From positions 32,001 to 96,000 of IMG/VR virus record IMGVR_UViG_3300016466_000859: a DNA stretch of 64,000 bases; one strand, written 5' to 3'. The notes under the pieces were generated by a model, which worked only from the letters and a program-made list of their open reading frames with translations, was not told the origin of the DNA and did no database searches. Source of the stretch: a virus. Of this stretch, positions 47,078 to 63,530 are shown piece after piece. Numbering within the stretch: the first letter of the stretch is position 1; each line of letters opens with the position of its first letter. A program made the position numbers and the translations under genes.

Positions 47078-47546
47078 TTTTTTGTTCCTCTAAGGCTTGC
47101 CGCATGCTATCATGATCTTGAAAGGGCCCGAGATACTCGTAGCGGTTTAGTGTGATCAGTTTGGGGCTAAATTCCTGTATCCAGTTGTCGCCATGTTTTA
47201 TGAGATAGTACCCAGCACAATAATAACTTTTGCTTTTTTCATTGAGACTGTAAATTGGCAGTTGGCGTTGCAGATTGAATATTCCTTTGTATGGCACATG
47301 CCGGCATGGAAATCCATATAGCTCTTTGAGCTTGGGTTTTTTGAGATCTTTGGTTGCTTTTGATAGTTTGATATTGTACTGTCGCTTGATGGCGATCATA
47401 CTGGGAAAATACTGCCGGGCCTGATTTTTAACAAATGCAAATCCGCCATCCTCCTTGGCCTGGATGGTGGCTACAGGTTTTCCTTCCTGCTCAACTACCC
47501 AAAATTTGTTTTTGACTACTGGAGTCGCAATCAATTGATCACTCAT
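47067..47546 (-). CDS. Hypothetical protein
   Basis: 159 aa; ATGA overlap with the exonuclease stop. Confidence 0.6.
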   Translation of the reverse strand: MSDQLIATPVVKNKFWVVEQEGKPVATIQAKEDGGFAFVKNQARQYFPSMIAIKRQYNIKLSKATKDLKKPKLKELYGFPCRHVPYKGIFNLQRQLPIYSLNEKSKSYYCAGYYLIKHGDNWIQEFSPKLITLNRYEYLGPFQDHDSMRQALEEQKNEQ

Positions 47547-48532: not shown

Positions 48533-48549
48533 AGAGTAATAGTAGCAGT

Positions 48550-49266
48550 TTATAATAAACGTGTCAACTCTGGATATAACCGTTTGGCCCAAGCCGCATG
48601 CGCATCTGCACCAAAATGATAAGATCCTGTTTTAACAGTAGAGAATCCATTTTTGGTCAACCAATCGTGGTATGTTTCGGATCGTTCATATGGACCAATA
48701 AAACAACCTTCCCAATCTTTTTGTAGATGTATCAGGTTATCCTTGCAAGAGATATTATTGAATTGAGAATAGCAATTGAAAAACAGGTGCGGGATATCTA
48801 ACGTGTTGAGATCTTGATGTAGATTCCATATCTTTTCGTGCCATTCAATTTCTTTGTTTTCCCACTGTACTCGATCTTGATCAATCACCCATTTGCGATA
48901 TCGATCAAGCAGGGCCATTGGCACAGTATCATGTCCGCTTCCGTTTACTTGCCACCAACGATGGTCATAGAACCACTCTTCTCTTTCCCACGTAGTCCAT
49001 CCGATCACCACGGCCTGTGGTCTGTGGGTTTTCAGATATTCTCGAGTGGTCCTTAATATCCTGTCATTGCTGGCTGCAGATTCAGAGTCGTTATATCTAT
49101 TCCACCCCAATTCTTCGGCTAACTTTGTGCCCCAACACACAGCTTCGTTATCAGGATGTGGTTTTCTACCCATGTGCCAATATTGACTATCGTCTTCGGC
49201 GAAAGCATGAGAATTAACAGCTTCTGCTCCAGCGGCGTTGCTGTCTCCGTTGATGTAAAGTGTCAC
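48550..49266 (-). CDS. SGNH/GDSL-like fold protein
   Basis: INGDSNAAG, SAASND, HFGADAH; paralogous to 26585 and 27215. Confidence 0.6.
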   Translation of the reverse strand: MTLYINGDSNAAGAEAVNSHAFAEDDSQYWHMGRKPHPDNEAVCWGTKLAEELGWNRYNDSESAASNDRILRTTREYLKTHRPQAVVIGWTTWEREEWFYDHRWWQVNGSGHDTVPMALLDRYRKWVIDQDRVQWENKEIEWHEKIWNLHQDLNTLDIPHLFFNCYSQFNNISCKDNLIHLQKDWEGCFIGPYERSETYHDWLTKNGFSTVKTGSYHFGADAHAAWAKRLYPELTRLL

Positions 49267-49649: not shown

Positions 49650-49911
49650 TGTTGGGTCCTTTCAGCATTAAGATTAATCCTTCATCTCTGTGCAGCCATC
49701 GAGTCTCTACGATAGGTTCGCCAGGCCCGGTCCACGTGGCTTCGGCTCTTACTGCCAGACCCCAGATTCTGCGGTTAGTGCGATAACATCGACGTGGCCA
49801 TAAGCTCCAACGATATTCGAATCGCGCCCGGCGTTCAAAATCGTTCTGGTCAGCCAAGAGCCTTATGGCGCGATCTAGGGTGCTTTCTATGGCCCACATC
49901 AAGTACCCCAT
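49636..49911 (-). CDS. Hypothetical protein
   Basis: Probable ATG at 49911 overlapping the queE end; the track's upstream extension lies inside queE. Confidence 0.5.
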   Translation of the reverse strand: MGYLMWAIESTLDRAIRLLADQNDFERRARFEYRWSLWPRRCYRTNRRIWGLAVRAEATWTGPGEPIVETRWLHRDEGLILMLKGPNNGAV

Positions 49912-50792
49912 TCGTTGCGCCAGATATCGACTTGAAGTCGGGGACTGTATCGCCAACCTCTCTCCATGGCCAGTCTGGCCACTTCCTGTGTGTTTAAATT
50001 GTAGACCTGTGGGACGCCGCCGGCAGGCATGAGATATATGGGTCCACCAAAGCCGGCCTCTCGGTATTCTGTGACCGCTCGTTCGGCGTCCTCTACATCC
50101 TGGCGAGTAGCCACAACGAACTTGAGATAGGTGTAGCCCACCATCTCGTACTCTTTGACCACTTTGGGATTGATGGCCGTCTCCCAACTCTCTCCTGAGC
50201 AGGGCAGTTTGGGACTCACAGAGAAGGTGAGTCTGTCATAATCACGACCATGTCGAGTAAATTCTTCAAAGAAATAATCTCGAACCGCAGGATACAGTTC
50301 TTGGCTGCCATTGGTTTCAATGGTGACATCACGTAATCCTTTCTGTCGGAGAAGATCTAGTAGAGCGGGATACAGTTGCTGATAACCCAGAAATGGTTCA
50401 CCGCCGGTGATGATAAAATGCACTTGGTCGCTGAAGTCTTGATCCCACTTTCCTTGGGGCAATAGTGCGTGGATTTCGTCAGCGATGGCATCGACATCGG
50501 CCTGTTTATTGAATCTCTTGAACTCGGGGTAAATTGATGCATAGGTATCGCAACCTGTGGTCACAAGTGGCAAGTCTTTGAACTCTCGATATCGTTCAGG
50601 ATCCTGCTCTACCATCCTAATGATGTCTACTACTTCGGGATTATGACCTTCGATGTTCTCATCACGTGGCCGCCCAAATTTCCGGCAACGGAAGTTACAA
50701 CCGTATGTGCGAAAAAAGATACTGGGCACACCGGCCCATTTGCCTTCGCCTTGTAGGCTGTAGAAGATTTCAGTGTAAGTGATTTTTTCCAT
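49899..50792 (-). CDS. queE: 7-carboxy-7-deazaguanine synthase (radical SAM)
   Basis: EIFYSLQGEG, FFRTYGCNFRC...GCDT, ITGGEP, IETNG, SVSPKL, RYSPRLQ. Confidence 0.9.
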   Translation of the reverse strand: MEKITYTEIFYSLQGEGKWAGVPSIFFRTYGCNFRCRKFGRPRDENIEGHNPEVVDIIRMVEQDPERYREFKDLPLVTTGCDTYASIYPEFKRFNKQADVDAIADEIHALLPQGKWDQDFSDQVHFIITGGEPFLGYQQLYPALLDLLRQKGLRDVTIETNGSQELYPAVRDYFFEEFTRHGRDYDRLTFSVSPKLPCSGESWETAINPKVVKEYEMVGYTYLKFVVATRQDVEDAERAVTEYREAGFGGPIYLMPAGGVPQVYNLNTQEVARLAMERGWRYSPRLQVDIWRNEWGT

Positions 50793-51133
50793 CAATGATT
50801 CCTTTTGCCTTGGAACACACAATTGAACAACATATGACTATCTCCATCGTTTATGACTCTATGAAAGGCCCCATCGGGGATCAAGACCACATCACCGGGA
50901 CCCACGGCAAACGGCTCATCGGTTTCTTCGCCTAAGATCATGTGACCGCGTCCCTGTACAAAAAAGTATACTTCTTCCTGCCCTGCATGTCTATGACCAC
51001 GAGTTTGTTTTCCACGATACAGCCATGTAGAACTCAGCACGAGGTTATTGAGGTCTCGGTTGTCTTTGAGTCGATAAACCTCATTGTCTTTGACGACGTC
51101 GCCGCCGACGTCATGTATGTGATATTTCTTCAT
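50792..51133 (-). CDS. Cupin domain protein
   Basis: GHRH...EEVYFF..G.G, V.PGDVVLIP.GAFHRV.N. Confidence 0.85.
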   Translation of the reverse strand: MKKYHIHDVGGDVVKDNEVYRLKDNRDLNNLVLSSTWLYRGKQTRGHRHAGQEEVYFFVQGRGHMILGEETDEPFAVGPGDVVLIPDGAFHRVINDGDSHMLFNCVFQGKRNH

Positions 51134-51518
51134 CTAAATATCTCTTTAGTTCTTTGTCTGTGGGCTTGACAGTGTAGTTGTTTTTGAAAAAGATTTCATA
51201 TGAATCCGACCCGTATTTGCCGATGCCATACAACATTGTAGCATCTTGTTTGTCCCAAGTCAAATAGTCCCGACTCATGCCCATCAACCTTTGATAGCGC
51301 ACATTGACCATCCCCAAGGGCTTTAGGATGCTTTTGACAAACTCTTCGTCGGCATCCAACAATGCATGAGGATTAGGGAACCAAAACAGGAATTCGGGCA
51401 AAGTCATTTTGACTGGCTTTCTCCCTGTTTGGTTCAGCATGATCACTCCTACCATGTGTTCCCACTCGTTGCGTATCTGTTGTTGTACCATCAAATCATC
51501 GCGCAAAGGTTCGAACAT
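51111..51518 (-). CDS. HhH-GPD superfamily DNA glycosylase-like protein (MBD4-like)
   Basis: VIMLNQT, LKPLG, LYGIGKYGSDSYEIF helix-hairpin-helix. Confidence 0.7.
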   Translation of the reverse strand: MFEPLRDDLMVQQQIRNEWEHMVGVIMLNQTGRKPVKMTLPEFLFWFPNPHALLDADEEFVKSILKPLGMVNVRYQRLMGMSRDYLTWDKQDATMLYGIGKYGSDSYEIFFKNNYTVKPTDKELKRYLDEEISHT

Positions 51519-51520
51519 CG

Positions 51521-51895
51521 TTAATCCTTTTTTGATAGAAACGGTGTTAGATTGGGAGGAATCCATCCCTCGGGTTTGAGTACTTTGCCATCCTCGCGCT
51601 TGCGTACCTTACCGGTTTCGCTGTCGATTTTGGCAAAGTTGGTACGCATGACTTCGTTCCAGGCGGCTTCGGCGTCCATGCCGGCAGAATGTATGGCACC
51701 AATGGTGACGACCAGTATATCGATCAATGCGTCGAGTTGCTCAACAGCATCGGCATCTAGTAAGGCATTTATAAGCTCTTGGTGCTCTTCTTTGATCAAT
51801 TTGAGATACATGTTGTATTGATCGACATTCCAGCCTTTTACTGTTTGATCGCAGGCTCGCATGAACCGCTCTTGGTCTTGGAAAGGGTTGGTCAC
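51521..51895 (-). CDS. MazG-like/all-alpha NTP pyrophosphohydrolase
   Basis: LIKEEHQEL, EQLDALIDILVV, EV.RTNFAK, REDGKVLKP. Confidence 0.85.
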   Translation of the reverse strand: MTNPFQDQERFMRACDQTVKGWNVDQYNMYLKLIKEEHQELINALLDADAVEQLDALIDILVVTIGAIHSAGMDAEAAWNEVMRTNFAKIDSETGKVRKREDGKVLKPEGWIPPNLTPFLSKKD

Positions 51896-51898
51896 TGT

Positions 51899-52435
51899 TT
51901 ATCCTTCGTAAATTGCAGAATTACCAGCATGTTCAAATACTTCCACCGATCTCAATTTGACATCTTGGCCCACAGGGTAGCGTGGCTCGAATGTTTCAAT
52001 ATGGTCGTTGCCTTTCATTAGGCGATAAGGTTGACCGGTTTGGAAGCAATGCAAGATACGAGCCATCTCATGATAGGCCAGTTCTGCGAATTTTTCGCAG
52101 CCCACTGCATCTACCAGCCTGATGTCACAGATGCCGCCGCGATCTTGTAGACCCAATGCGGCCAAGTCTTGGAATTTTTGCAGATGAGGATCATCTCGCG
52201 CAATCACTAATGTGTGATCGAACATGTATTCCGACCACTCTTTGAAAGCCTTCAGTCCACCGAAGTCCATAACCCAATTGCGACTATCAAGGGTAGCAGA
52301 CTCAAATACAAGACGAATGCCAATGCTATAACCATGCAATAGGCTGCAATGACTGTGAGTGCTACGCCATTGACGGAAACAACATGAAAGGCCTCGGTCA
52401 TTGCCATAAGTTTTTGTTGATACATATTTTGCCAT
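51899..52435 (-). CDS. queD: 6-carboxy-5,6,7,8-tetrahydropterin synthase
   Basis: HSHCSLLHGY, WVMDFG, FDHTL, CEKFAE, VFEH; AGGAG RBS before ATG 52435. Confidence 0.88.
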   Translation of the reverse strand: MAKYVSTKTYGNDRGLSCCFRQWRSTHSHCSLLHGYSIGIRLVFESATLDSRNWVMDFGGLKAFKEWSEYMFDHTLVIARDDPHLQKFQDLAALGLQDRGGICDIRLVDAVGCEKFAELAYHEMARILHCFQTGQPYRLMKGNDHIETFEPRYPVGQDVKLRSVEVFEHAGNSAIYEG

Positions 52436-52442
52436 CTCTAGT

Positions 52443-52512
52443 CTCCTGTGTAAAATGAGCAAGTTTGATGGCATGCAGAATATTTAGAGTGGGATGAATG
52501 CCTGAGTCCACT
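52443..52512 (-). promoter_or_regulatory. Structured queD 5' leader: H-type pseudoknot plus ROSE-like SD hairpin (candidate cis-regulatory RNA)
   Basis: AGUGG/CCACU and GGCAU/AUGCC interleaved stems, then CUU-G-CU...AG-GAG; TAAATA upstream at 52531-52536. Confidence 0.4.
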
Positions 52513-52545
52513 GGGATCATAATAGACGTATATTTATCGTCTGTG

Positions 52546-53364
52546 CTAGTCCATGAAAAATCGCTGGTACCATGGCAGCATTTCGGTCTGATAATCTACT
52601 TCTATGTCCTTGAGTTGATTGTACACGATCTTTTTAGTAATATCAAGTCGTTCTTGTTTAGTTTTTGCTCCTAAAACCACCACTATGAAGTTGCGATTGT
52701 TTTTTTCCACCATGAGTGCCACACACCACCCCGCGGCTGACGTAAATCCGGTCTTAGAAATAACGATCTCGTCGAACTCAAACAGCAAAGGACGATTGGT
52801 ATTTTCCAGTTCGATGGTGCGAACACGCTGCCGAAGATTGATGTCAAACAGAACCTGTTTCTGCACCGAAGTCTCTACTATAAAAGGATACAAAGCCGCG
52901 GCCTTGATCAATTCTATCACTTCTCCTGCAGTGGCACGATTATTGGCACTTAGGCCCGACGCATCTTCGAATCGAGCGGTAGCCATGCCCAATTTCTTAG
53001 CTCGATGATTCATGGCTCGTATAAAAGCCTTCTCGCCACCAGGGAAATCAGCGGCCATGGCATCAGCGGCACGGTTGTCGCTCCTGATCAGCATGGCCCG
53101 CATGATGTCACGTCTTGTGTGCAGACCGGCTGGCAACTTTCCGCCAGGTTTGATTACAATATAACGATCTAAGTTGCGATCATGATCTAGAGCTATCATG
53201 GCTGTCATGATTTTGGTAATGCTGGCAATGCTCCTGGGTATGTTGGAGTTATTGCCCATTATTACCTCACCGCGTGTGGTGTCATATAAAATCACCGACG
53301 AATCGCGTGTCTGTGCTGACGCTGAACTAAAAACGACAAATAATAAAAATACAAAATATTTCAT
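52546..53364 (-). CDS. D-alanyl-D-alanine carboxypeptidase/endopeptidase (peptidase S11) with signal peptide
   Basis: SITK (SxxK), SDN (SxN), KTG; N-terminal signal peptide. Confidence 0.9.
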   Translation of the reverse strand: MKYFVFLLFVVFSSASAQTRDSSVILYDTTRGEVIMGNNSNIPRSIASITKIMTAMIALDHDRNLDRYIVIKPGGKLPAGLHTRRDIMRAMLIRSDNRAADAMAADFPGGEKAFIRAMNHRAKKLGMATARFEDASGLSANNRATAGEVIELIKAAALYPFIVETSVQKQVLFDINLRQRVRTIELENTNRPLLFEFDEIVISKTGFTSAAGWCVALMVEKNNRNFIVVVLGAKTKQERLDITKKIVYNQLKDIEVDYQTEMLPWYQRFFMD

Positions 53365-53753
53365 GGTTTCTGATAATCAGATTTTCGATAATTGGCTTGC
53401 CCGGGAATCACGCCACGCACACCACCCACCGGATCTTCTACATCGCCTTTTCTGCGAGGAATTAAATGTATGTGTGGATACATGACTGTCTGCCCAGCAG
53501 ATTCTCCCATGTTCATCCCGATATTAAATCCATCACATTCGTTTCGATCTACCATGATCTGCCCTTCTAGCCAGGCTTCATAGAGAGTACTCATCATTGA
53601 TACCGGATCTATGTTCTTTGGTACAAATAACAGATGTCCTTGGGTAACAGGATACCGATCGCGAAACACTATATAAGTCATGCCATCTCGAACCCAATCA
53701 TCCCAAGGAATGCGGCCTTGATTTTTAGCTAGATAATAATTGTCATGTAACAT
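53361..53753 (-). CDS. HIT family hydrolase
   Basis: YPVTQGHLLFVP, AGQTVMYPHIHLIPR. Confidence 0.9.
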   Translation of the reverse strand: MLHDNYYLAKNQGRIPWDDWVRDGMTYIVFRDRYPVTQGHLLFVPKNIDPVSMMSTLYEAWLEGQIMVDRNECDGFNIGMNMGESAGQTVMYPHIHLIPRRKGDVEDPVGGVRGVIPGQANYRKSDYQKP

Positions 53754-53755
53754 GT

Positions 53756-54280
53756 TTATATCCTAATGTGTTGTTTTTGGACAAATACCTCTTTTACTAG
53801 ATCGATTGATTCATGGAAGTGTATGCTAAACCATATCCTAGATTTGTCATTGAACACTCGGTGATATTGAGTGATGTTGATGATGGTTGGCAACATGTTT
53901 TTACCAGTGTAGTAAAAATCATTTTTATCATCGGGATCATAAACCACTCCCACAGCGTCATTTTTGTGTAACGGATATACTAGGCTAGCTTGCCCGTTTT
54001 TGATGCTGTCGCGATGTCGAGGTACATCGCGGCTGCTGTAACAGATAGTAGCAGGAGTGAATGTGAGCTCAGGCAATGCTGTATGGAATCGTTGTTGCAG
54101 GTCTTCGGTTTCTGGCAAACCACCCATGACAAAGAAATCTTCGCTGGGGCCACTCTTAGAGATCCAGCCGCCGCTGGGAATTTCTGCCACTACACTGGCA
54201 CCATTTTCGTATAACACATGATCACGATACTTGTTGGTTTTGATAAATTCTTCGGCTATGCCGGTGATTTTTTTAATCAT
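53756..54280 (-). CDS. Putative 2OG-Fe(II) dioxygenase-fold protein
   Basis: HRD (HxD)...YHRV...RIWFS pattern. Probable ATG at 54280. Confidence 0.5.
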   Translation of the reverse strand: MIKKITGIAEEFIKTNKYRDHVLYENGASVVAEIPSGGWISKSGPSEDFFVMGGLPETEDLQQRFHTALPELTFTPATICYSSRDVPRHRDSIKNGQASLVYPLHKNDAVGVVYDPDDKNDFYYTGKNMLPTIINITQYHRVFNDKSRIWFSIHFHESIDLVKEVFVQKQHIRI

Positions 54281-54330
54281 TGGCTCCCACTCGTAATCAA
54301 TGTAGATCGCAGGATGGAATCCCAACAGCA

Positions 54331-54912
54331 TCACACATGTTCCTCGTTGGGATTCCAGCGACACCACCATTCTTCCCAGGGAAACACGATCCATTGTGGA
54401 TCTTCGAACTTGTTAATGGTCTCAGCGGCATAGTTGGGATGCAATGTGCTTTCGCTGCTTTCGTTGTCATAGAGCACTGCTACACGCACGTTTTTGCCCC
54501 AGACCTCGGACCAACGTGGGTGGTTGGGCAAACATCCACTGGGCCAATCTTTTTTTATCCAATTCAGCGTGGCACCTGAATCATTGATGTCATCTACGAT
54601 CAAGATGTTTTTGGCGTGTAAGGAATAATCAAAATCGGCCAAGGTCTGTTCTTCCTTTGGTACATAACCAAATGCGTCTTCGGCCATCCAAAGATTGCTC
54701 TCACAATCTCCGTCCTCGCCGCCGTCGCGTAACTTTACCTTGAGAGTTTCCATGGGACGATCGAGATACTGGCTTATCAGATTGGCCGGAGTCAGTCCTC
54801 CTCGAGTGATACCAACCACATAATCGGGCACCCATTGATCCAACCACATTTGACGGATCAATTCTTGAACTTGTCGTTGGACATCGTTCCAACTCACATA
54901 GACTTTTTTCAT
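54331..54912 (-). CDS. Type I phosphoribosyltransferase (purine PRT-like)
   Basis: VVGITRGGL, ILIVDDINDSGATL, WIVFPWE. Confidence 0.88.
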   Translation of the reverse strand: MKKVYVSWNDVQRQVQELIRQMWLDQWVPDYVVGITRGGLTPANLISQYLDRPMETLKVKLRDGGEDGDCESNLWMAEDAFGYVPKEEQTLADFDYSLHAKNILIVDDINDSGATLNWIKKDWPSGCLPNHPRWSEVWGKNVRVAVLYDNESSESTLHPNYAAETINKFEDPQWIVFPWEEWWCRWNPNEEHV

Positions 54913-55298
54913 CGCTTCAATGTCTCCCAGACCTCGCGCTTTTCGTGTAATTCTTTTTCCTTTGCACGGTATTCATCGCCGATCTTGCGTAGTTCCTCAA
55001 ATTCTTTTTCAAGGTCAGGATCAAATTTAATCAAACTCAGTTGTCGACGAATTCCTTCTAGGATTTCCATGAGGCTGTGCTCACCGATCTCGATGTCGGC
55101 GTTTTCGCCCGTGAGTTTGATTTTCGCACCACCGTTGAGTGTGGTCAATGCTGTATCAGTGAAAGTCCATGGTCCCGAGGTACCGTCAGTGACGGTGACA
55201 GTGCCGGGATAAGGGGTAGCCGGCAAAGTCACTGACATGTTGCCGGCAGCGTCAGTGGTCCACACTGGCGGCAGCACGTTGTTGGAGGTATTGATCAT
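54909..55298 (-). CDS. Hypothetical protein
   Basis: 129 aa; C-terminal coiled coil. Confidence 0.55.
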   Translation of the reverse strand: MINTSNNVLPPVWTTDAAGNMSVTLPATPYPGTVTVTDGTSGPWTFTDTALTTLNGGAKIKLTGENADIEIGEHSLMEILEGIRRQLSLIKFDPDLEKEFEELRKIGDEYRAKEKELHEKREVWETLKR

Positions 55299-55722
55299 TG
55301 CGTATCCATTTGTTGTTGACTAGGAATCCCCATTCTCGAAGTTGTGGCCCAGGCATGAATAGTGTCCAAGCAGTTACACCGGGAACCAGTTCAATGCGAT
55401 GATAAGAACGAGATGAGCAAACACGGAAATGGCCAGGGCCGCGCCAGTGTCGAGTTTCTCCGACCTGTAGGCCTTGCGAATCGAACTCAGGAATCCATTC
55501 ATAATATCCTCCCTTGAGTATCAGAGTAGCGTAAGGCCATGGATGGTCATGCACGTCATCGGGATCTGACTTAAGAAATTTGTGAACGAATATATTAAAG
55601 GGGAACCACTTTCGGTCTCGAAGGAAAACATAATATCGCTCCAGATAAGGTTCTTGGTCAGCACGATCCATGATCACTCTATGGCGACCCAGTCGTGTCA
55701 TGATCCTTTTAAGCAACGGCAT
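55252..55722 (-). CDS. Cupin-fold protein
   Basis: HDHPW...LILKGGY.E, YHRIEL, WTLF. Confidence 0.7.
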   Translation of the reverse strand: MPLLKRIMTRLGRHRVIMDRADQEPYLERYYVFLRDRKWFPFNIFVHKFLKSDPDDVHDHPWPYATLILKGGYYEWIPEFDSQGLQVGETRHWRGPGHFRVCSSRSYHRIELVPGVTAWTLFMPGPQLREWGFLVNNKWIRNDQYLQQRAAASVDH

Positions 55723-55921
55723 TTTTGAGGTTTTCGCCAAGTGAGTGGATCTGTTCGCTGGTGAGGAAAAAATTGTAACTGCTTTCTTGCGTCTTTTCTC
55801 CGTCGTCGTTGTATTGTTCTCCGGTGAATACCAGATGCTTGAGATCCGCTGGTGCGGCACAGTCGGCAACAGTGACTCTTAATTTGAAACTTGGATGATC
55901 TTTAGCTAGGAAGGTTTTCAT
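55709..55921 (-). CDS. Hypothetical protein
   Basis: Probable ATG at 55921. Confidence 0.5.
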   Translation of the reverse strand: MKTFLAKDHPSFKLRVTVADCAAPADLKHLVFTGEQYNDDGEKTQESSYNFFLTSEQIHSLGENLKNAVA

Positions 55922-55931
55922 AATTTCTCTC

Positions 55932-56666
55932 TTATCTGGGTGCAAAGTCTTGTTGTAGTTTGATATTGTCCATGAACTCTTTTTTTACAGCAGGATCGGT
56001 TTGGAAAGCGCCATGCAACACTGTGGTCTGGGTGAGGCTGGAATGTGCCATGATGCCGCGATTTTCGCAACAGCCATGCGTGGCCTGGATGTAAACTCCC
56101 ACGTCTTTGCTATCAGTGGCCCGCATGATCTCGCGTGCGATGTCGTTGCAGAGTTCTTCTTGCAAGGTACCACGCCGGCTGCACCATTGTGCGATACGAG
56201 TGTATTTGCTCAATCCAATCAGTTTTTCTGCAGCCAGAATGCCAATATAAGCAACGCCAGAAACGGGTTGGTGATGATGACTACACATACTACGAATTTC
56301 ACTACGAACCACAAGCATGCCTGTGTAGCGGTCCTCGCTGTCATTAGGAAACGCTGTGCAATCGGGTGCTGGATCATATCTACCTTCCATGATTTCATTA
56401 TAGTACATCTTGGCCAGGCGGCGGGCGGTGCCCTTGGAATTTGGATCGGTCTCACGATCGATCAAGAGACGATCCAACACCAGCTCGAACGCTTCGGTGG
56501 CTTCATCGATCAAGACCTTCTTCATCTCGGGATACACATAGTCCGAGATGTTGTCTCCAGCCCAGAAGCGTTTTCCCTGTGATCGCATGTTGGCCCGGAT
56601 GGCGTCGCTGAGGTATGTGCCTTTGCTGTCTTTGGGCTGTGCGTATTCATTAAATTTTACTGTCAT
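55932..56666 (-). CDS. folE: GTP cyclohydrolase I
   Basis: SMCSHH, IGLSKYTR, RGTLQE.L, ATHGCCENRG. Confidence 0.95.
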   Translation of the reverse strand: MTVKFNEYAQPKDSKGTYLSDAIRANMRSQGKRFWAGDNISDYVYPEMKKVLIDEATEAFELVLDRLLIDRETDPNSKGTARRLAKMYYNEIMEGRYDPAPDCTAFPNDSEDRYTGMLVVRSEIRSMCSHHHQPVSGVAYIGILAAEKLIGLSKYTRIAQWCSRRGTLQEELCNDIAREIMRATDSKDVGVYIQATHGCCENRGIMAHSSLTQTTVLHGAFQTDPAVKKEFMDNIKLQQDFAPR

Positions 56667-56713
56667 AATTTCTCCGAGTTATAGGCGGTGGATCGCCGGG
56701 TATGATACTACTG

Positions 56714-56742
56714 ATTATAGAGTATATTTAGGTCGCTGTCAA
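56714..56742 (-). promoter_or_regulatory. Perfect sigma70 promoter TTGACA-N17-TATAAT with TAAATA nested in the spacer
   Basis: Plus-strand attata at 56714-56719, tgtcaa at 56737-56742, tattta at 56725-56730. Confidence 0.85.
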
Positions 56743-57317
56743 ATTATACGAATTTTTCTAAGGTCCGGATATGTTTTAGGTTGTGGTTGGTTGTTGTGAG
56801 TTCCTAATATCGTTAAACCGATCTCTGCTTCTTCGGGTGTAGGACGATAATGATATCCGATTTCGAACACCTGTTGATCTTGCCATGGTGATATGTCTAG
56901 ATCTCTGCCATCGTATCTTTGTCGTATGACCTTTTGGTAGAATCGTTCATCGTCAGTGAGTATGGCTCCGCCACGACCTATCTCCAAAGGCTTGTCGAAT
57001 CCAAAACTCAAACATTGTAGCATGCCGGGACGATACATGTTTTCCCGTAACAATCTCGCCGAATCCCATATCCTTGACCCGTGAAATTGGTATTCACCGA
57101 TCCATTCTTCGTCGAGGTGTTCATATCCGATGTCAAGACGTCGTAGAATCATAGGTACACTGAGATAAGTGTAGGCCGTGAATCTCACAAATTTAGGTCG
57201 ATCATAGCGGAAACACAATTCAAGTGCGTGCGTACAACAATCTGTCATGATCACATAAGGTGCACCGGTATAGTTGGCCAATGCTTGTTCGAAGTCTGCA
57301 ATGCTGTTAAATGACAT
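56739..57317 (-). CDS. Short DegT-like PLP-dependent protein
   Basis: FEQALA.Y.G....TDCCTHALEL, DSA, LSFGFDKPLEIGRGGAILTDD; only 192 aa. Confidence 0.7.
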   Translation of the reverse strand: MSFNSIADFEQALANYTGAPYVIMTDCCTHALELCFRYDRPKFVRFTAYTYLSVPMILRRLDIGYEHLDEEWIGEYQFHGSRIWDSARLLRENMYRPGMLQCLSFGFDKPLEIGRGGAILTDDERFYQKVIRQRYDGRDLDISPWQDQQVFEIGYHYRPTPEEAEIGLTILGTHNNQPQPKTYPDLRKIRII

Positions 57318-58305
57318 CTCGTTGATACCATTCCCATGCGTGTTCGATCATTTCATATAAATCGTATCGGGGCCGCCACGAAGAATCGCGCATGAGTTTG
57401 TTAGCCGAAGCAGTCAATAACGCAGGATCGCCTTCGCGCCGCGGTCCGAATTTTGGTGGCCAATGTGTGCCAGTCACTTGTTCGGCGATCTTGACTACAT
57501 CGAGATTGCTGGCGCCTTGGTTGGTGCCGATATTATAGACGCCGCACAGTCCTTCCTCGATGGCCACGCGGATTGCAGAAGCGATGTCAGCGACATGTAT
57601 GTAATCTCGCACACAAGTACCGTCGGGTGTAGCAAAATCGTCGCCGTTGACAACGAATTCTTTTTGATTGATCACTGACTCAAGATAACGAGCAATGATA
57701 TGCGTGGCGGCTTTTTCCTGTCCGTGCCGGCCCTGGGGATCGGCGCCACACACATTGAAGAAACGGAAAGCGGTATACTTGATGCCATACGCTCTCGCAT
57801 AATCAGCAAGGATCTGTTCAAACATAAGTTTGCTGTGTCCATACGGCGAGATGGGTACCGTAGGACCATCTTCATTGAGTGGAACAACACTGGGATCGGG
57901 ATTGCCGTAAGTGGCTGCTGAACTGGCAAAAATGAAATGTGCATCGGGTTGATACTTGCGCACGACGTCTAACAAACGTATAGATCGAGCAACATTGTTT
58001 TCGTAATACTCGCTGGGATCGGTCATTGATGGCCCCACGAGACTGGTGCCAGCACAATGAACTATGATATCGGGTCGACATTCGACCACGAAATCCAAAG
58101 TTTGATCGCTGTCGAAACTAGATTCAATGGTCGAGGACCAGGCTTGGCTGATTGGCCTACGTCGGCGATCTACTCCTATGACGGTATAGCCATGGTCGAT
58201 GAGTTCTAAACCAACTTGACCCCCAATATACCCTCCAGCACCAGTGACCAATGCGGTCTTATCAATACTTCGTTTCACTGGTATGCTTTCGATAATCTCT
58301 TCCAT
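57307..58305 (-). CDS. galE: UDP-glucose 4-epimerase-like (GalE)
   Basis: VTGAGGYIG, SSAATYG, PYGHSK, FRFFNVCGA, DGTCVRDYIHV.DIA, RREGDP. Start uncertain. Confidence 0.85.
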   Translation of the reverse strand: MEEIIESIPVKRSIDKTALVTGAGGYIGGQVGLELIDHGYTVIGVDRRRRPISQAWSSTIESSFDSDQTLDFVVECRPDIIVHCAGTSLVGPSMTDPSEYYENNVARSIRLLDVVRKYQPDAHFIFASSAATYGNPDPSVVPLNEDGPTVPISPYGHSKLMFEQILADYARAYGIKYTAFRFFNVCGADPQGRHGQEKAATHIIARYLESVINQKEFVVNGDDFATPDGTCVRDYIHVADIASAIRVAIEEGLCGVYNIGTNQGASNLDVVKIAEQVTGTHWPPKFGPRREGDPALLTASANKLMRDSSWRPRYDLYEMIEHAWEWYQRDVI

Positions 58306-59440
58306 CACGCAGGAATCGTTGGCCACTGCCTTCCAAGATGTCGCAGATACGATCGATGGTTCCATCGTTGTAATCGGAGATGGCACCCATCCTTGGATGC
58401 GGTGCTTCCAGCAAGGGTTTGAGTTTGTCAATGGCATCATCTAAACTCCAAGGGACATAGAGACGGGTATGATCATTAGCAAAAGTCTCAGGAAAACTAC
58501 GGTACGCAGGGTATAGAACATTGCAACCAAGAGTGTCTGCTTCCGAGACTGTGTTGGAAACCCAGTCTTGGAGGGCGCAATTAAACAGCACACGACTATC
58601 ATTGAGTAGAGCGTAGTAATCATTTTTCTCTAGATCCTCGTGCAAGGTCAGCATGCCATGGGCCTGTAGATCTCGTGTGCGTTGCATATAGCTGTCGTTG
58701 TTGCTACGGAGCTTGGCGCCTGAGAAGATGGCGAACTCCACGCCTGAATCAGGATAACGACGATGCCACTCTTCGATGATGTCCATGTAAAAGTCAGGTT
58801 GCTTTTCTTGATCCCAGCGAGCGGCAAAACCCACTCGTCGAGCACGGTCCTGGAAAGGCTTTAGTTCGCCTGGCACACGGCCACGCACTTCGTCTTTGCC
58901 AAAGGCAAGTCCGGAGATATTGTAGATTGGGGCTTCCCAGCCAGCGATTTTCATGTGTGCCACCATCTCTTCGTTGGTAGCCAGGACCATGTCTACGAAT
59001 GAGTCCACCATCTTTTCATACGTTGACATCCATTTGCCCATGCCCCAGACATGAACGAAGTCGTCGGGATCGATAGTTTGTGCAAGACAACGAACGGCAA
59101 TACGAGGGCGGAGGGCAGGATCGATTTGATCCATAATGTAAGGCAAGCTCTCGATACCGGGCTGGAACATATCTTCAAAATAGATGACATCTTCTCCTGT
59201 GACTTCTCCGGCCTTCATTTTCTTGACGAGATTCATGAGCTGGCTCATACCAAAATAGGTACGCCCGTGTGCATCCAAGACCTGTCCTGTGACGATGGCT
59301 TTGTCGTTGCTGAGCGTCTCACCGGGCACGATCTCATAATCAATACCTCGACGCTCGAACACCGCCCGATTCCACTCTTGTAGTTGAAGAGTGTACCGAG
59401 CTTTGTAGGGCTCTAAGCCCATGTACCAAAGTTTTCTCAT
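58262..59440 (-). CDS. GT-B fold glycosyltransferase (GT4-like)
   Basis: FAARWDQEKQP, YYALL..SRVLFNCALQDWVSNTVSEA (D-x7-E), GC..LYP. Confidence 0.8.
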   Translation of the reverse strand: MRKLWYMGLEPYKARYTLQLQEWNRAVFERRGIDYEIVPGETLSNDKAIVTGQVLDAHGRTYFGMSQLMNLVKKMKAGEVTGEDVIYFEDMFQPGIESLPYIMDQIDPALRPRIAVRCLAQTIDPDDFVHVWGMGKWMSTYEKMVDSFVDMVLATNEEMVAHMKIAGWEAPIYNISGLAFGKDEVRGRVPGELKPFQDRARRVGFAARWDQEKQPDFYMDIIEEWHRRYPDSGVEFAIFSGAKLRSNNDSYMQRTRDLQAHGMLTLHEDLEKNDYYALLNDSRVLFNCALQDWVSNTVSEADTLGCNVLYPAYRSFPETFANDHTRLYVPWSLDDAIDKLKPLLEAPHPRMGAISDYNDGTIDRICDILEGSGQRFLRDGRDYRKHTSETKY

Positions 59441-59715
59441 CGATGATTGTTCCTGTTATTCCACCCACCTTCGCGTTTTTCAAAACGTGGTTTGTTGGGA
59501 TCACGCGGTTTCCAATACCACATGTCGCGGGCCCAACCTTTGGTGGCTTTGCGTTGCAGTTCTCCCCAGGGACCGTACTCTTTGTAGAGTTTGGCTTCAT
59601 CAAAGGGGTGACCATGCTCCACACAAAATGCACGATATTGGTCGAGGTCGTCGAAGATCTGGTCAACCTCGGGCTTCATTTTAAGATATTTTTCCAACCA
59701 CTTGGGATTAGACAT
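59437..59715 (-). CDS. Hypothetical protein
   Basis: 92 aa; AAAGGA RBS. Confidence 0.6.
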   Translation of the reverse strand: MSNPKWLEKYLKMKPEVDQIFDDLDQYRAFCVEHGHPFDEAKLYKEYGPWGELQRKATKGWARDMWYWKPRDPNKPRFEKREGGWNNRNNHR

Positions 59716-59735
59716 TGCTACTTTCCTTTTTAGTA

Positions 59736-60230
59736 TTAAACAGAAAGGGTTTGAGGACGGTGAGTTTCGTATTTGATGAGGCAGCCGTTCTCACCATCTT
59801 CGGCAACCTCAATCCAGACGCTACGGCCAGGATACTTTTGCGCGATCTGTAAATACAGATCGTCGGCGATCATTTCGCAACTTTTGTAGTTGAGTTCTAG
59901 TACTGAATTTTGATTATGGGAAACGGCCCGATCACGCAAGACATCGGATCCTGCGGAGTTGGTGTACAACGACAAGAGCCAACGCTTGAACTGGATGAAC
60001 TCGATGTCCCGGTCGTTGTGGAACACAGAGATCCACACCCGGAAATGGAAAATATGGCGATGAGGACTAGCAAGGAACGAAACATCATATTCATCTCCTG
60101 TGGCCAACCGGGGATCGGTAGCGGCTGCAGGGTATTTATGAATACCTTCTCGTTGAAAAGTGACCCAGATCTTTCGATCTGCAACATCTACGATTCGATC
60201 TATTGTTTCTCTTTGTTGTTGTGTGATCAT
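59736..60230 (-). CDS. QueD-like T-fold protein (DpdL-like, candidate CDG decarboxylase)
   Basis: GIH...LASPHRHIFH...DIEFIQ...SCEMIA...EDGENG; lacks the QueD CxxxHGY motif. Confidence 0.6.
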   Translation of the reverse strand: MITQQQRETIDRIVDVADRKIWVTFQREGIHKYPAAATDPRLATGDEYDVSFLASPHRHIFHFRVWISVFHNDRDIEFIQFKRWLLSLYTNSAGSDVLRDRAVSHNQNSVLELNYKSCEMIADDLYLQIAQKYPGRSVWIEVAEDGENGCLIKYETHRPQTLSV

Positions 60231-60277
60231 GATTAAATTTTATGTGATTTTCTATTAGATGTCAAACTTCTTGGACG

Positions 60278-60610
60278 CTATAGATGTTCTTTTTTCGCTA
60301 GGGTTTTTAGGATTTGGAGGCGTTCATGAGCTTCTTGTAATCCAGGATGTTGGCGACACAATTCTTCAAATTCCCGATCTTCTCGCATTTTCTCTCGCGC
60401 CCACTGCATGATCTCTTCGGCTTCTCTGTCTAGACCTATTTCAGCATGTCCACCGAAGTCCATCCAGTTGGAACCGTCATACACTTCCGTGCGATTGTTC
60501 TGTGTGTTATACCTCAGCATACCTGCGCTTTGCTGGTTCCCTACATAAGGACTAGCAGGACTGGCATTCACACGTATCCAACGGCTGTCTGAAGACATGG
60601 TGCGGATCAT
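60278..60610 (-). CDS. Hypothetical protein
   Basis: 110 aa; ATGA overlap with the upstream gene. Confidence 0.6.
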   Translation of the reverse strand: MIRTMSSDSRWIRVNASPASPYVGNQQSAGMLRYNTQNNRTEVYDGSNWMDFGGHAEIGLDREAEEIMQWAREKMREDREFEELCRQHPGLQEAHERLQILKTLAKKEHL

Positions 60611-60945
60611 GATTGCCTCATGGATTCCATGGTTATGATCTTGCCCAATTCTAAGTTGAAATCCTGCTCGTCGGTGATGATGTAACTGCGATCTTCTGAA
60701 CGATCTGTTTTACGATCGTAGATCCGGAAGCTGACCACAAAGCCGCCGATCATTTTCTTGATACCAATGCGTAGACCGTCGTTCCAGGGAGTGACGTCTT
60801 CTTCTATGATGCCTCGCCCTGCCAGTTTGTTTATAGCAGTTGATGACTGAAGAGCAGGTTCCGCACTGTCACGATTTTCCCAGGCCCACTGCCACTTGCG
60901 GAAGAACCATCTATCAATCCATTTCATTATCATTATTCTCTCCAA
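60607..60945 (-). CDS. Hypothetical protein
   Basis: 112-aa ORF in a contiguous run. Confidence 0.55.
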   Translation of the reverse strand: MERIMIMKWIDRWFFRKWQWAWENRDSAEPALQSSTAINKLAGRGIIEEDVTPWNDGLRIGIKKMIGGFVVSFRIYDRKTDRSEDRSYIITDEQDFNLELGKIITMESMRQS

Positions 60946-61502
60946 TAGTTATCGCCATCGGGATATTGGCTGTCCAACACCTGAACTTCTTTGTCACGAA
61001 CCACCTCGTCTTTTTCGTACTGGCTCCAATCTGTAAATCTATCTCGCGGCATCAGGTCTCTGAGTTCATGCACCCATACACCAGGATTGGTGGCAGCGAA
61101 GTCTCGATCATCGATCTTTACACAGGTATTGTAGTTCCAAAGTTTTGTATAAGGGATGGGCACCTTGATGATGGGAATGAATCGATCACGTTCACACAGA
61201 CCACCTTCATGAAATTCTTCTACATACTGGAAAGGAATGTCTAGGCTACACCAGTATCCGCGATCCAAGAATGTCATAATAACATTTTCCCAACCGGTAT
61301 GGTCGGCGTCGGTCTTGGGTTGATAGCTGTCGTTGGCACCAAAGAAGATGTGCTTTATACTTCGATCGTGGGTGAGATATTGCTCGATTTTTTCCTGTGT
61401 ATGATAGCCCACTACAAACAAGGTATCCATTCCAAAAGCAGGAGTGTGTTCCACTTCCTGTCCATAGAAAAAATCAATGTCGTTGTGTCCTTGCCTATCC
61501 AT
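60933..61502 (-). CDS. Hypothetical protein within the deazaguanine cluster
   Basis: EVEHTPAFGMDTLFVVG, HIFFGANDSY, KIDD.DF.ATNPGVW; probable ATG at 61502. Confidence 0.65.
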   Translation of the reverse strand: MDRQGHNDIDFFYGQEVEHTPAFGMDTLFVVGYHTQEKIEQYLTHDRSIKHIFFGANDSYQPKTDADHTGWENVIMTFLDRGYWCSLDIPFQYVEEFHEGGLCERDRFIPIIKVPIPYTKLWNYNTCVKIDDRDFAATNPGVWVHELRDLMPRDRFTDWSQYEKDEVVRDKEVQVLDSQYPDGDNYWRE

Positions 61503-61701
61503 GTCGTCCCCAATTGATCCTGTTCCAAATTCGTTCATAAAGATAATAACTAGACATCCAAATCATGTTCATTATCACAGTAGGCAAGATAGCCTGGCTC
61601 CAGCTTTGGCCAGTTATCAGCAACATGGTATAAGTGCTGACTATGACCCAACATCTATAGATCACTGTCTTGACTAGAGTTCGTTTGTGACTATCGGTCA
61701 T
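61495..61701 (-). CDS. DUF2061-like small membrane protein
   Basis: HKRTLVKTVIYR...YYLYERIWNRINWGR; paralogous to 30094. Confidence 0.72.
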   Translation of the reverse strand: MTDSHKRTLVKTVIYRCWVIVSTYTMLLITGQSWSQAILPTVIMNMIWMSSYYLYERIWNRINWGRHG

Positions 61702-61900
61702 CGTCAAAATCTAGAGTCTCTTGATCATGTTCCCACTGCTGACGCTTTAGTTTAGCGATTTCATCTTTTAAATGCAACTTCTTTTTCTTCAAAGTCTGTA
61801 TATGTTCATCCGAATACTTGCCGGACTTTTCCAATTTAGCGATCTGATCGTCCAAGATCTTATGAGACTCTTCCAGGTGTTGTATGCGTCTTTCAAACAT
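61691..61900 (-). CDS. DUF465/YdcH-like coiled-coil protein
   Basis: LEESHKILDDQI...LKKKKLHLKDEI; GAGGAG RBS. Confidence 0.75.
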   Translation of the reverse strand: MFERRIQHLEESHKILDDQIAKLEKSGKYSDEHIQTLKKKKLHLKDEIAKLKRQQWEHDQETLDFDDDR

Positions 61901-63530
61901 CAGTGTTCTCCTCGAGTTGGTGTAATTTGGATTCATCGAGCCCGGGCTCTTCTTCGTTTTCTTCTACAGCATCAAATAACTCATTGAACTTGGTGTTGGC
62001 ATTTTTGGTTTTCTTTCCTTTAAAACCACGTGTGCCCACGATCTCCATCCAGTACGTGTCATAGCGTTCAATGATGCCCTCGGCTGTAGCCCGGTCCGGT
62101 GAAGAGAATATCGCTTCCACGATGTCCTCGAAGTAAGCGTAATCTCCTCCGCTACGACGCATCATGGCCGGATGTTCTCCGGCATCAAAACGCCTGTTGG
62201 CTTCTTGTACTGCTGTGAGATGCATCCAAACATTGTGAGCCATCAGCAAGCAATAGCTGAAGCTATCCCAGCTGGTCTTGCCCCATTTACCATTTTTATT
62301 TGTGTCGGGTAAAACATCATACATGTCGGGATCTTGAAAGTTCTTCTCATCAATGACAACTCCGGGTTTGGGCACTCCGGGCCGGTAGATGCAGACATCC
62401 TTCATGCGTAACAAGTCGCTGACAGGACTGTCTTCCCATCGGGGGTAGATACCATCAGCCACAACTCCAGCACTCCACGGGCGTGTGTCTGTGGCGTATC
62501 GTTTATCGTCAGCTGACGGAGCCATACGATAGCTCCATTTGGCATCATTTTCAAAGACATTTTCAAAGTAGACCTGCCCATTGGCAGTGGCTAAAAATGG
62601 ACTAGCGCAGTCAAAAGAGATAGTAAATCTTGGATTCACATACTTGCGGATGGCTCTTTGTATTACTGTGAGCAATACTGCCCATTCTAGTTTACTTGTG
62701 CCCAGGAAGTGCATCCAATCGTGTCGTCCTTCCTGTAGGAGATTGTCATAACGCAGGGCCACCAAGCGTCTCAGTACCAGATGTACGTCGCACATGTTTT
62801 GACCTCCCATGGCCCAACCGTCGAAATGTGTGTCAGGATATTGAATGGGGTCGCAATAGTGTTTCATGATTTCATACCACTCATCTGCTGACTTGTGATT
62901 GTCGCCTTGCAAGACATTAAGAAATCGAGCGCCACCATTCTTGACACCCTTGCGATTGGCCATAAAGTATTCGTTGTTGAACTTGGTAGCGGCCACTGCT
63001 TCTGGAAGTGTTTTGATACCACAAGCCTGTGATGCTTTTTTATCATGGATGACCCAGGTAGGAATATCAAGAATCATACCGTAGTCGGCGATACCATCCA
63101 GCCATTTTAACACGGCGTCACGTTTCTTCTGTGCCCGTGGACAACCTGATCCCGCCTTCCAGTCACCTTCCCATAGGCCTTTGGCGATCTGGAACCCGCC
63201 CGAGTCACCAAGGATCAGGGTGTTGGGGTCACGATTGCGAACCATGTCCTCGCTCCAGTCCTGCTTGGTGAGATCAAGGTTGGCATGTCCGCCCGAGTAT
63301 AGGCTCCAACGATACGGAAAAAAACTTTTTTGTGCGTTAAGCCAGTTCAGTTCTTCCATGTCCTTCATGCCTGGAGGAAACCTTGCAGGATCCACATAAG
63401 GACCATTCACAGGGTCGCGTTGCTTGCCTATGAACGTGGCATAGAACCCTGAAATCGCCGGCAAGAATACTGCGTAGTCGTTTTGTTTAGCTGTGAGATT
63501 ATCTTGCGACACTGGATATATTTCTTTCAA
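61893..63530 (-). CDS. TGT-fold guanine transglycosylase (DpdA-like or tRNA-guanine transglycosylase)
   Basis: GDSGGFQ, MILDIP, NVLQG, GWAMGG, HFLG, SFDCASP; flanked by deazaguanine genes. Confidence 0.8.
   Translation of the reverse strand: MKEIYPVSQDNLTAKQNDYAVFLPAISGFYATFIGKQRDPVNGPYVDPARFPPGMKDMEELNWLNAQKSFFPYRWSLYSGGHANLDLTKQDWSEDMVRNRDPNTLILGDSGGFQIAKGLWEGDWKAGSGCPRAQKKRDAVLKWLDGIADYGMILDIPTWVIHDKKASQACGIKTLPEAVAATKFNNEYFMANRKGVKNGGARFLNVLQGDNHKSADEWYEIMKHYCDPIQYPDTHFDGWAMGGQNMCDVHLVLRRLVALRYDNLLQEGRHDWMHFLGTSKLEWAVLLTVIQRAIRKYVNPRFTISFDCASPFLATANGQVYFENVFENDAKWSYRMAPSADDKRYATDTRPWSAGVVADGIYPRWEDSPVSDLLRMKDVCIYRPGVPKPGVVIDEKNFQDPDMYDVLPDTNKNGKWGKTSWDSFSYCLLMAHNVWMHLTAVQEANRRFDAGEHPAMMRRSGGDYAYFEDIVEAIFSSPDRATAEGIIERYDTYWMEIVGTRGFKGKKTKNANTKFNELFDAVEENEEEPGLDESKLHQLEENTDV

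Follow-up and report, generated by a model that had tools for sequence, protein, structure and literature searches.

A predicted QueC-less, DpdL-type 7-deazaguanine module with a candidate glycosylation branch in a freshwater jumbo phage

The module and the pathway it may encode

The DNA described here comprises bases 32001-96000 of the 130,947-bp IMG/VR record IMGVR_UViG_3300016466_000859, and we refer to this whole stretch of 64,000 nucleotides as the window. Positions 49899-63530 hold a tightly packed series of genes, all on the minus strand, which we propose to be a QueC-less, DpdL-type 7-deazaguanine DNA-modification module with a built-in glycosylation branch. We regard this proposal, taken whole, as evenly balanced between right and wrong, and its parts differ in strength. 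Deazaguanine modification of the DNA is very probable, and the glycosyltransferase (GT) encoded in the module is likely to be part of the deazaguanine pathway; whether the sugar ends up on the DNA base falls a little short of an even chance. The most specific version, in which hexosyl- (probably galactosyl-type) 7-deazaguanine is made in DNA by way of DpdL and a dedicated GT4-like enzyme, and is installed by an unnamed 520-600-aa branch of the TGT superfamily, is offered tentatively. An earlier note on this DNA had described a single-strand gene cluster here, and all of the genes that it named do lie on the minus strand. Its list did not include a purine phosphoribosyltransferase (PRTase), a HIT protein, a MazG-like protein, an HhH-GPD protein, an S11 D-Ala-D-Ala carboxypeptidase and a DUF465 protein, nor did it contain the DpdL identity or the QueC-less logic.

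FolE, QueD and QueE convert GTP to 7-carboxy-7-deazaguanine (CDG), and as members of these known families the proteins of the window would be expected to do the same. The DpdL homologue would then turn CDG into 7-deazaguanine, a decarboxylation proposed for DpdL of phage phiST (Cui, Hutinet et al., NAR 2023, PMC10516641). From its fold, motifs and gene context, the 545-aa TGT-fold enzyme may exchange guanine in the phage DNA for the deazaguanine base. The later steps are suggested by gene linkage: GalE would supply a UDP-hexose 4-epimer, the GT would transfer the sugar to the deazaguanine, either as the free base before insertion or on the DNA afterwards, and the virion DNA would carry hexosyl-7-deazaguanine and be shielded from restriction. 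Where a PRTase is present, it would in the simplest reading recycle the released guanine to GMP and GTP. The HIT protein, a half-length DegT-like protein and the protein that we call u201 are conserved members outside these proposed steps.

The record has a completeness estimate of 37%. Its relatives are 331-354 kb in length at 95-98% completeness, and the record is thus a fragment of an uncultured freshwater jumbo phage. PolB is encoded upstream of the module, past the window end, and a 5'-3' exonuclease/RNase H downstream of it (47543-48592), so that the module sits within a replication block. Megablast of the module region against phage records gave no match. Conservation was counted over 81 related loci that were fetched, few of which extend downstream to the accessory genes. 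The core set kept in relatives consists of the TGT-fold transglycosylase, DpdL homologue, GT, GalE, half-length DegT-like protein, FolE, HIT protein, QueD and QueE. The order DpdA-like transglycosylase, u201, DpdL, GT, GalE, DegT-like, FolE, HIT, QueD is retained, among 80 related loci, in every one that is long enough to show it, with variable inserts.

Predicted deazaguanine synthesis and insertion

The type of the module is set by a 164-aa, QueD-paralogous T-fold protein (59736..60230, minus strand; phrog_17812), which corresponds to the second T-fold protein of the earlier note and which we identify as a DpdL homologue. At the signature site it reads L-A-S-P-H-R-H-I-F; the motif LxxxHRHxF, as against CxxxHGH in QueD, is the signature that separates DpdL from QueD (Cui et al., PMC10516641). 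By tblastn the protein matches phiST inside CGPG_00067, which is DpdL (E 2e-6), and Acidovorax phage ACP17 (E 2e-35), while the family hidden Markov model (HMM) finds phiST at E 8.9e-17. It is 47-58% identical to the proteins of ACP17, the Pseudomonas jumbo phage PA5oct and Phosso. No QueC scored over cut-off in the 130,947-bp record, and none was found in the 95-98% complete relatives; taken together with the DpdL signature, this absence makes the module one of the QueC-less DpdL type. The sole chemically characterised DpdL phage is phiST, in which all deoxyguanosine is replaced by plain 2'-deoxy-7-deazaguanosine (dDG; PMC10516641).

The transglycosylase is encoded by an open reading frame of 545 aa (61893..63530, minus strand), translation of which probably begins at the GTG at 63512 and yields 539 aa. 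The protein has no match in Pfam, NCBIfam, PHROGs or the PDB sequences, even when a 49-sequence profile is used. The Pfam TGT family PF01702 matches neither the protein nor any of the six frames of the record at E<=1, and reaches one of 49 homologues at E 0.088. The TGT fold anticipated by the earlier note is nevertheless confirmed by the structural model. The AlphaFold model (pLDDT 90.6) returned TGTs for all of the top 50 Foldseek matches (probability 1.0), and a VIA structure search gave Z values of 18-19, with bacterial, human and archaeal TGTs tied (for 2ash_A, Z 18.8 and a root-mean-square deviation (rmsd) of 4.3 over 306 residues). The motifs DSGGFQ and FDCASP are present, and a set of 49 homologues of 26-81% identity shows no variation at D109, S110, G112, D155, H274 and D307. 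The three aspartates are those of the DSGG, LD.P and FDC motifs, and we take them to be equivalent to D102, D156 and D280 of the Z. mobilis TGT. For the TGT zinc site (CxCxxC...H), no invariant Cys/His cluster is found among the conserved columns of the family alignment.

The family profile of this enzyme finds nothing at E<=10 in Campylobacter phage CP220, which has a DpdA3, and tblastn gives no match in phiST or CP220. Only by hhalign does the family align with a set of ACP17, BUDD, BCSR5 and phiST DpdA sequences at 96.8% probability, the alignment being to ACP17. The family is large, with more than 6,500 close metagenomic homologues that form 929 clusters at 50% identity. In PA5oct, a 540-aa orthologue (33% identical) lies near QueE. 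The homologue in Vibrio phage 2.275.O adjoins QueF, a YhhQ-type transporter, QueC, an amidotransferase and FolE, and QueE is also present. The transglycosylase is thus encoded together with 7-deazaguanine synthesis genes in the window, in PA5oct, in Vibrio phage 2.275.O and in the distant related locus L098, and the contexts in PA5oct and Vibrio phage 2.275.O provide independent support for a deazaguanine role. We class the 545-aa protein as DpdA-like, within a branch of the TGT superfamily that has no name as yet, and predict that it inserts its base into DNA.

The GTP cyclohydrolase I FolE (55932..56666, minus strand; PF01227, 134.5 bits) and the QueD/PTPS-like T-fold enzyme (51899..52474, minus strand; PF01242, 48.7 bits) are both recognised by their families, in keeping with the earlier note. 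The QueD-like protein has CxxxHGY in place of CxxxHGH and is unusually long at 191 aa, and its relatives fall into two identity classes of ~74% and ~40%. The assignment of QueE, a radical S-adenosylmethionine (SAM) CDG synthase (49899..50822, minus strand), holds in part. The orthologous genes of PA5oct and Phosso carry the annotation QueE, and the protein is 29-31% identical to QueE of PA5oct, BUDD and Ahp1, but the five QueE models match it with 39-51 bits, all far under their cut-offs of 200 or more. We describe it as QueE-like. It contains CxxxC ... CDTYA, and its third radical SAM cysteine is apparently displaced by an insert of ~44 residues. A HIT-family nucleotide hydrolase or transferase (53361..53753, minus strand; PF01230, 36 bits) is located between FolE and QueD in most relatives.

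Upstream of folE, in a gap of 72 nt, is a sigma-70-like promoter (56742-56714, minus strand; TTGACA-17-TATAAT, 12/12 matches). A TAAATA box is nested within it at 56725-56730 (minus strand), and others precede queD at 52481-52486 and 52531-52536. The combination of promoter and TAAATA boxes suggests that the base-synthesis genes may be expressed both early and late.

The glycosyltransferase and competing readings

The GT gene (58262..59440, minus strand) encodes an enzyme of the GT-B type, as the earlier note had proposed, which is recognised as GT4-like from its fold model together with weak Glyco_trans_1 matches. The model (pLDDT 78) has the two-Rossmann-domain GT-B fold, and its nearest structural relatives are retaining GT4-type enzymes with Z values of 20-22. 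MshA is first (Z 21.9, rmsd 4.5, 342 residues), with PimA, OtsA, BshA and TarM tied at Z 20-21, and T4-type DNA-acting GTs are not among the 50 matches listed in either structure search. The homologue in phage BUDD, which is tied to the window family at an HMM E value of 2.4e-22, scores 45.7 bits against a cut-off of 26.4 for Pfam Glycos_transf_1. Four residues (R208, K213, D292 and E300) do not vary among 20 family members; we read R208/K213 and D292/E300, without a structural superposition, as the presumed GT4 donor-binding R-x4-K and acidic-x7-E pairs.

The principal reason for assigning the GT to the deazaguanine pathway is the company that it keeps. Across the loci of the clade the GT is 64-93% identical and the transglycosylase 73-88%, and in the distant locus L098 the GT is still 66% identical while the transglycosylase is down to 39%. 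When 50,697 phage records were searched by tblastn, the GT was found only in the DpdL-bearing phages BUCT-ZZ01 (66% identity), ACP17, PA5oct, BCSR5, BUDD and X1, with the one exception of a weak partial match (E 0.04) in Ochrobactrum phage vB_OspM_OC. The family HMM adds Phosso, for a total of seven cultured phages, and finds no member in phiST, CP220, RHph_I1_18, Ahp1 or Vibrio 2.275.O. Every copy adjoins either DpdL or the transglycosylase/DpdA, in four different gene orders. For the BUDD-type GT in IMG/VR, all four of the loci that were fetched have DpdL within 1.5 kb; IMG/VR scans with the PA5oct GT and with P0135 gave no loci. A family that is detected only in DpdL phages, apart from that weak match, and that always adjoins DpdL or DpdA despite varied order, is likely to belong functionally with the deazaguanine genes. 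We consider this linkage to be well supported, and the glycosylation chemistry to be predicted from it. The sugar-decorated deazaguanine of the earlier note is made plausible by the linkage of the GT to DpdL and DpdA, and its chemistry stays at the level of prediction.

Within the window, a sigma-70-like promoter precedes DpdL (60237..60265, minus strand; TTGACA-17-TAAAAT, 11/12 matches). Downstream of it, DpdL, u92, GT, GalE and DegT-like follow one another with gaps of <=20 nt or with overlaps, and the GT is predicted from this layout to be co-transcribed with DpdL. GalE, a UDP-glucose 4-epimerase (57307..58305, minus strand), was correctly named by the earlier note (TIGR01179, 277.4 bits versus a cut-off of 262.3). 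Its start is probably 58305 or 58278, and not 58440, since its relatives are 314-330 aa long. The DegT-like protein (56739..57317, minus strand) does match PF01041 (44.7 bits), but the match extends over no more than positions 164-235 of an aminotransferase model with 360 positions, and at 192 aa the protein lacks the size of a full-length fold-type I pyridoxal phosphate enzyme (~360-400 aa). Its length is 192-209 aa in the 21 relatives examined. The protein keeps the N-terminal helix motif and the SFxxxK lysine, and is without ~55 residues of the large domain and the entire small domain.

Several points weigh against the proposed pathway. At C7, 7-deazaguanine offers no evident hydroxyl or amine by which to accept a sugar, and the glycosylated base of the GT-bearing members is itself predicted from gene linkage. 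The window GT scores 18.5 and 17.2 bits, as compared with Pfam cut-offs of 25-27. The GT family has an acidic pI (5.2-6.0), which gives no hint of DNA binding, and we set protein pI aside as an uninformative indicator of a DNA acceptor. Synteny inside one phage clade is expected in any case, and the weight of the linkage argument rests on the distant lineages. Finally, the decarboxylase activity assigned to DpdL is a proposal from the literature, and DpdA and DpdL of ACP17 gave no dDG in E. coli (PMC10516641).

Some of these points would fit a reading in which the product is plain dDG, as in phiST, and the GT is a helper that leaves no sugar on the DNA, acting either through a transient glycosyl ester of CDG made for DpdL or as a non-catalytic partner of the transglycosylase. 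Since phiST reaches 100% dDG without any GT, and since the base is without a clear acceptor group and the GT is acidic, such a role deserves consideration; ACP17 does have the GT, so that the failure of its DpdA and DpdL alone makes a missing helper plausible. We nevertheless judge this reading to be unlikely. A dedicated GalE in the same operon suggests that sugar is used stoichiometrically, and PA5oct retains an epimerase fragment. In BUCT-ZZ01, a second GT beside the first suggests the building of a glycan, and the putative donor-binding residues of the GT are invariant.

A route at the nucleotide level, before replication, is improbable. Here the PRTase would join deazaguanine to phosphoribosyl pyrophosphate, kinases and ribonucleotide reductase would produce the deoxynucleoside triphosphate, and PolB would incorporate it; the MazG-like and HIT proteins would clear dGTP, and the TGT-fold enzyme would be of minor importance. 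Tubercidin clusters, which work from CDG with a PRTase and a decarboxylase and have no QueC (bioRxiv 10.64898/2026.04.15.718813), offer a precedent. In addition, a PRTase lies beside QueE in the window, PA5oct, BUCT-ZZ01, L098 and L109, and is thus recurrent in other lineages, and MazG-like genes adjoin DpdL both in relatives of the window phage and in phiST. However, three relatives of 95-98% completeness have the remaining module genes and no PRTase, for which reason we set aside the idea that this enzyme makes a nucleotide-level pathway obligatory. Salvage of guanine explains the PRTase equally well, and the transglycosylase is the most widely conserved member of the module.

It is very improbable that the GT, GalE and DegT-like protein serve the glycosylation of a virion protein or of the host envelope and are clustered with the other genes only through shared early expression. 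The absence of any evident acceptor chemistry on the base would fit such a role, but in unrelated phages, whose gene orders differ, the GT family is found nowhere but next to DpdL or DpdA, and the promoter layout predicts co-transcription of the GT with DpdL.

The least probable alternatives, for which we see hardly any room, are a tRNA target (queuosine-like and possibly glycosylated), which the earlier note had kept as its alternative and in whose favour the solved structures nearest to the transglycosylase are those of tRNA TGTs, and a glycosylated pterin made from FolE/PTPS products, as in the biopterin glucoside of cyanobacteria, for which tetrahydrobiopterin glucosyltransferases do appear among the GT structural matches (9v0l, Foldseek rank 32; 5ze7, Z 19.6): PolB and RNase H flank the module within the replication block, DpdL phages such as phiST have modified DNA (dDG; PMC10516641), a modified G is reported for PA5oct (PMC12191111), pterin glycosides involve neither QueE nor a transglycosylase, and the glucosyltransferase match is no better than that of dozens of other GT-B enzymes.

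The earlier note had also raised a second base-glycosylation pathway, parallel to the first. For a pyrimidine route of this kind no acceptor-making enzyme was found. We rejected parallel glycosylation of 5-hydroxymethylcytosine or 5-hydroxymethyluracil (hmC/hmU): the only thymidylate-synthase-family match in the record is ThyA, which has the canonical Asn and PCH motifs, and no separate hydroxymethylase was seen. The pairing of an oxygenase with the glycosyltransferase, on which the note had drawn, finds no support either, as the cupins and the 2-oxoglutarate (2OG)-like protein are accessory inserts present in few or none of the related loci.

Accessory genes and flanking regions

Three further genes lie between the transglycosylase and the GT. 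A DUF465 protein (61691..61936, minus strand; PF04325, 46.6 bits) is present in 25 of the 81 related loci. The conserved unknown protein u201 (60933..61538, minus strand) follows the transglycosylase in nearly all relatives (78/81 loci), and its homologue adjoins DpdA in ACP17 (HMM E 1.4e-19); an Atlas search with u201 gave no known fold. The small unknown protein u92 (59437..59715, minus strand, as open reading frame coordinates) overlaps the GT start by 4 nt at its end and is found in 38 related loci.

Inserts in the FolE-QueE portion are for the most part rare. Of the two cupins in the earlier note, one is a clear Cupin_2 protein (50792..51133, minus strand; PF07883, 48.3 bits), for which the 81 related loci gave no match at 1e-5 and one 24-residue match at a locus end. 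The other, a cysteine-dioxygenase-like cupin (55252..55869, minus strand; 4/81 loci), is assigned by one PHROG match (phrog_4786, "cysteine dioxygenase", E 6e-37). The oxygenase of the earlier note has similarly partial backing. This possible 2OG-Fe(II)-type protein (53756..54394, minus strand, with a start that is probably internal; 1/81 loci) has 2OG-FeII_Oxy_3 and Asp/Arg hydroxylase as its nearest named Atlas clusters, at 0.94, but no match in Pfam, NCBIfam or the PDB. The PRTase, of the xanthine/guanine type (54331..54912, minus strand; PF00156, 47 bits; NF006613, E 1.9e-12), is likewise found in 1 of the 81 loci.

An S11 D-Ala-D-Ala carboxypeptidase with a signal-peptide-like N-terminus (52546..53364, minus strand; PF00768, 135 bits; 1/81 loci) lies between HIT and QueD and has its one counterpart in L056, the closest relative. 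Host peptidoglycan is its probable substrate, and it probably has nothing to do with the module. The MazG-like (PRA-PH) pyrophosphatase (51521..51895, minus strand; PF01503, 41.6 bits) occurs in 6 of the 81 loci, where it is found between DpdL and GT. A small HhH-GPD protein (51111..51566, minus strand; PF00730, 28 bits) also occurs in 6 of the 81, there directly after FolE. Its 151 residues include a G-I-G-K hairpin with an Asp ~20 residues on, an arrangement that resembles an active EndoIII-type site, and in Phosso an annotated "glycosylase" directly precedes DpdL. Host END nucleases sense modified bases by means of an inactive EndoIII domain, and by analogy the HhH-GPD protein might be a counter-measure or a repair helper.

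Beyond the window, between PolB and the transglycosylase, there is a class I SAM methyltransferase (L001:4107-5042, minus strand; 78/81 related loci), and beside it a radical SAM/SPASM-like protein (L001:3010-4110, minus strand; 20 loci); either could tailor the base or the sugar. At 6.8-12.5 kb past the window end (L001:8797-14530) are three tandem pairs, each of an unknown partner and a ~390-aa PP-loop-type enzyme. The three enzymes are 38-45% identical to one another, and one of them has a match to QueC at the PP-loop level only (E 0.013). Divergent QueC homologues (RoyL) ligate amino acids to CDG, and we considered the PP-loop enzymes as QueC/RoyL-like CDG amide ligases of the module. This was rejected, as they occur in only 4 related loci and homologues are lacking from PA5oct, Phosso, Vibrio 2.275.O and CP220. 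We treat them as accessory, and a link to deazaguanine tailoring is possible but unsupported.

Relation to known systems and significance

The window module resembles the phiST DpdL system in having FolE, QueD, QueE, a DpdL with LxxxHRHxF, a MazG-like gene nearby (directly beside DpdL in phiST) and a TGT-related transglycosylase by the polymerase genes, and in having no QueC. In contrast, phiST has no homologue of the GT, GalE, DegT-like, HIT or u201 proteins, its DpdA3 has 259 aa as compared with 545 aa for the window family, and its product is plain dDG.

The PA5oct (Wroclawvirus) locus, EST35_0316-0322, shares more. It encodes the transglycosylase, followed by the GT, DpdL (49% identical), an epimerase fragment, a PRTase and QueE, and it lies between PolB and RNase H, as in the window. 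Unlike the window, this stretch has no FolE, full GalE, DegT-like or HIT gene, and all of its module genes except QueE are annotated hypothetical. The fragment, EST35_0320 (L005:15416-15934), is a 172-aa NAD-binding half of an epimerase/dehydratase and is located between DpdL and the 144-aa PRTase. The DNA of PA5oct is reported to carry a modified G: restriction sites that contain G withstand cutting, and a modified-G-sensing nuclease attacks the DNA (PMC12191111). This modified G fits the proposed pathway but does not reveal a sugar. In Synechococcus phage BUCT-ZZ01, a cultured freshwater cyanophage (L108:7010-8353), the module contains a second GT and a PRTase, in the order QueE, PRTase, x, QueD, FolE, second GT, ACP17-type DpdA, DpdL, GT.

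Among base-modifying systems, the closest parallel in layout is with the alpha- and beta-glucosyltransferases of T4, where a phage GT-B enzyme is likewise found beside base-modification genes and restriction protection is the presumed role. The difference lies in the acceptor, which is hmC or hmU for the T4-type enzymes and would be a purine analogue here. Glycosylation of 7-deazaguanine-derived bases has other precedents. Eukaryotic tRNA contains mannosyl- and galactosyl-queuosine. In the huimycin and dapiramicin pathways, the GT HuiG decorates a free deazapurine base (bioRxiv 10.64898/2026.04.15.718813). As in the window, these systems combine the FolE, QueD, QueE core with a nucleotide-sugar GT that acts on a 7-deazaguanine-derived base. 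Their products, secondary metabolites or tRNA bases, derive from preQ0 or queuosine and need QueC, whereas the window has no QueC, encodes a transglycosylase and places the genes in a DNA-replication setting.

Literature searches for a glycosylated deazaguanine in phage DNA found nothing. To our knowledge, every DNA base so far found to carry a sugar is a pyrimidine, and no deazaguanine known from DNA carries one. If the proposal is correct, the base would be the first purine of any genome to bear a sugar, and DNA hypermodification would gain a new class. The modified G of PA5oct, a therapeutic jumbo phage, would then be identified as well, and the GT and u201 are possible candidates for the factors left out of the failed dDG reconstitution. 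The transglycosylase branch involved is very common in freshwater metagenomes. The modification would bear on evasion of restriction and CRISPR, on modified-G-sensing defences of type IV and END type, on the sequencing of such genomes, and on phage therapy, for which PA5oct is a candidate.

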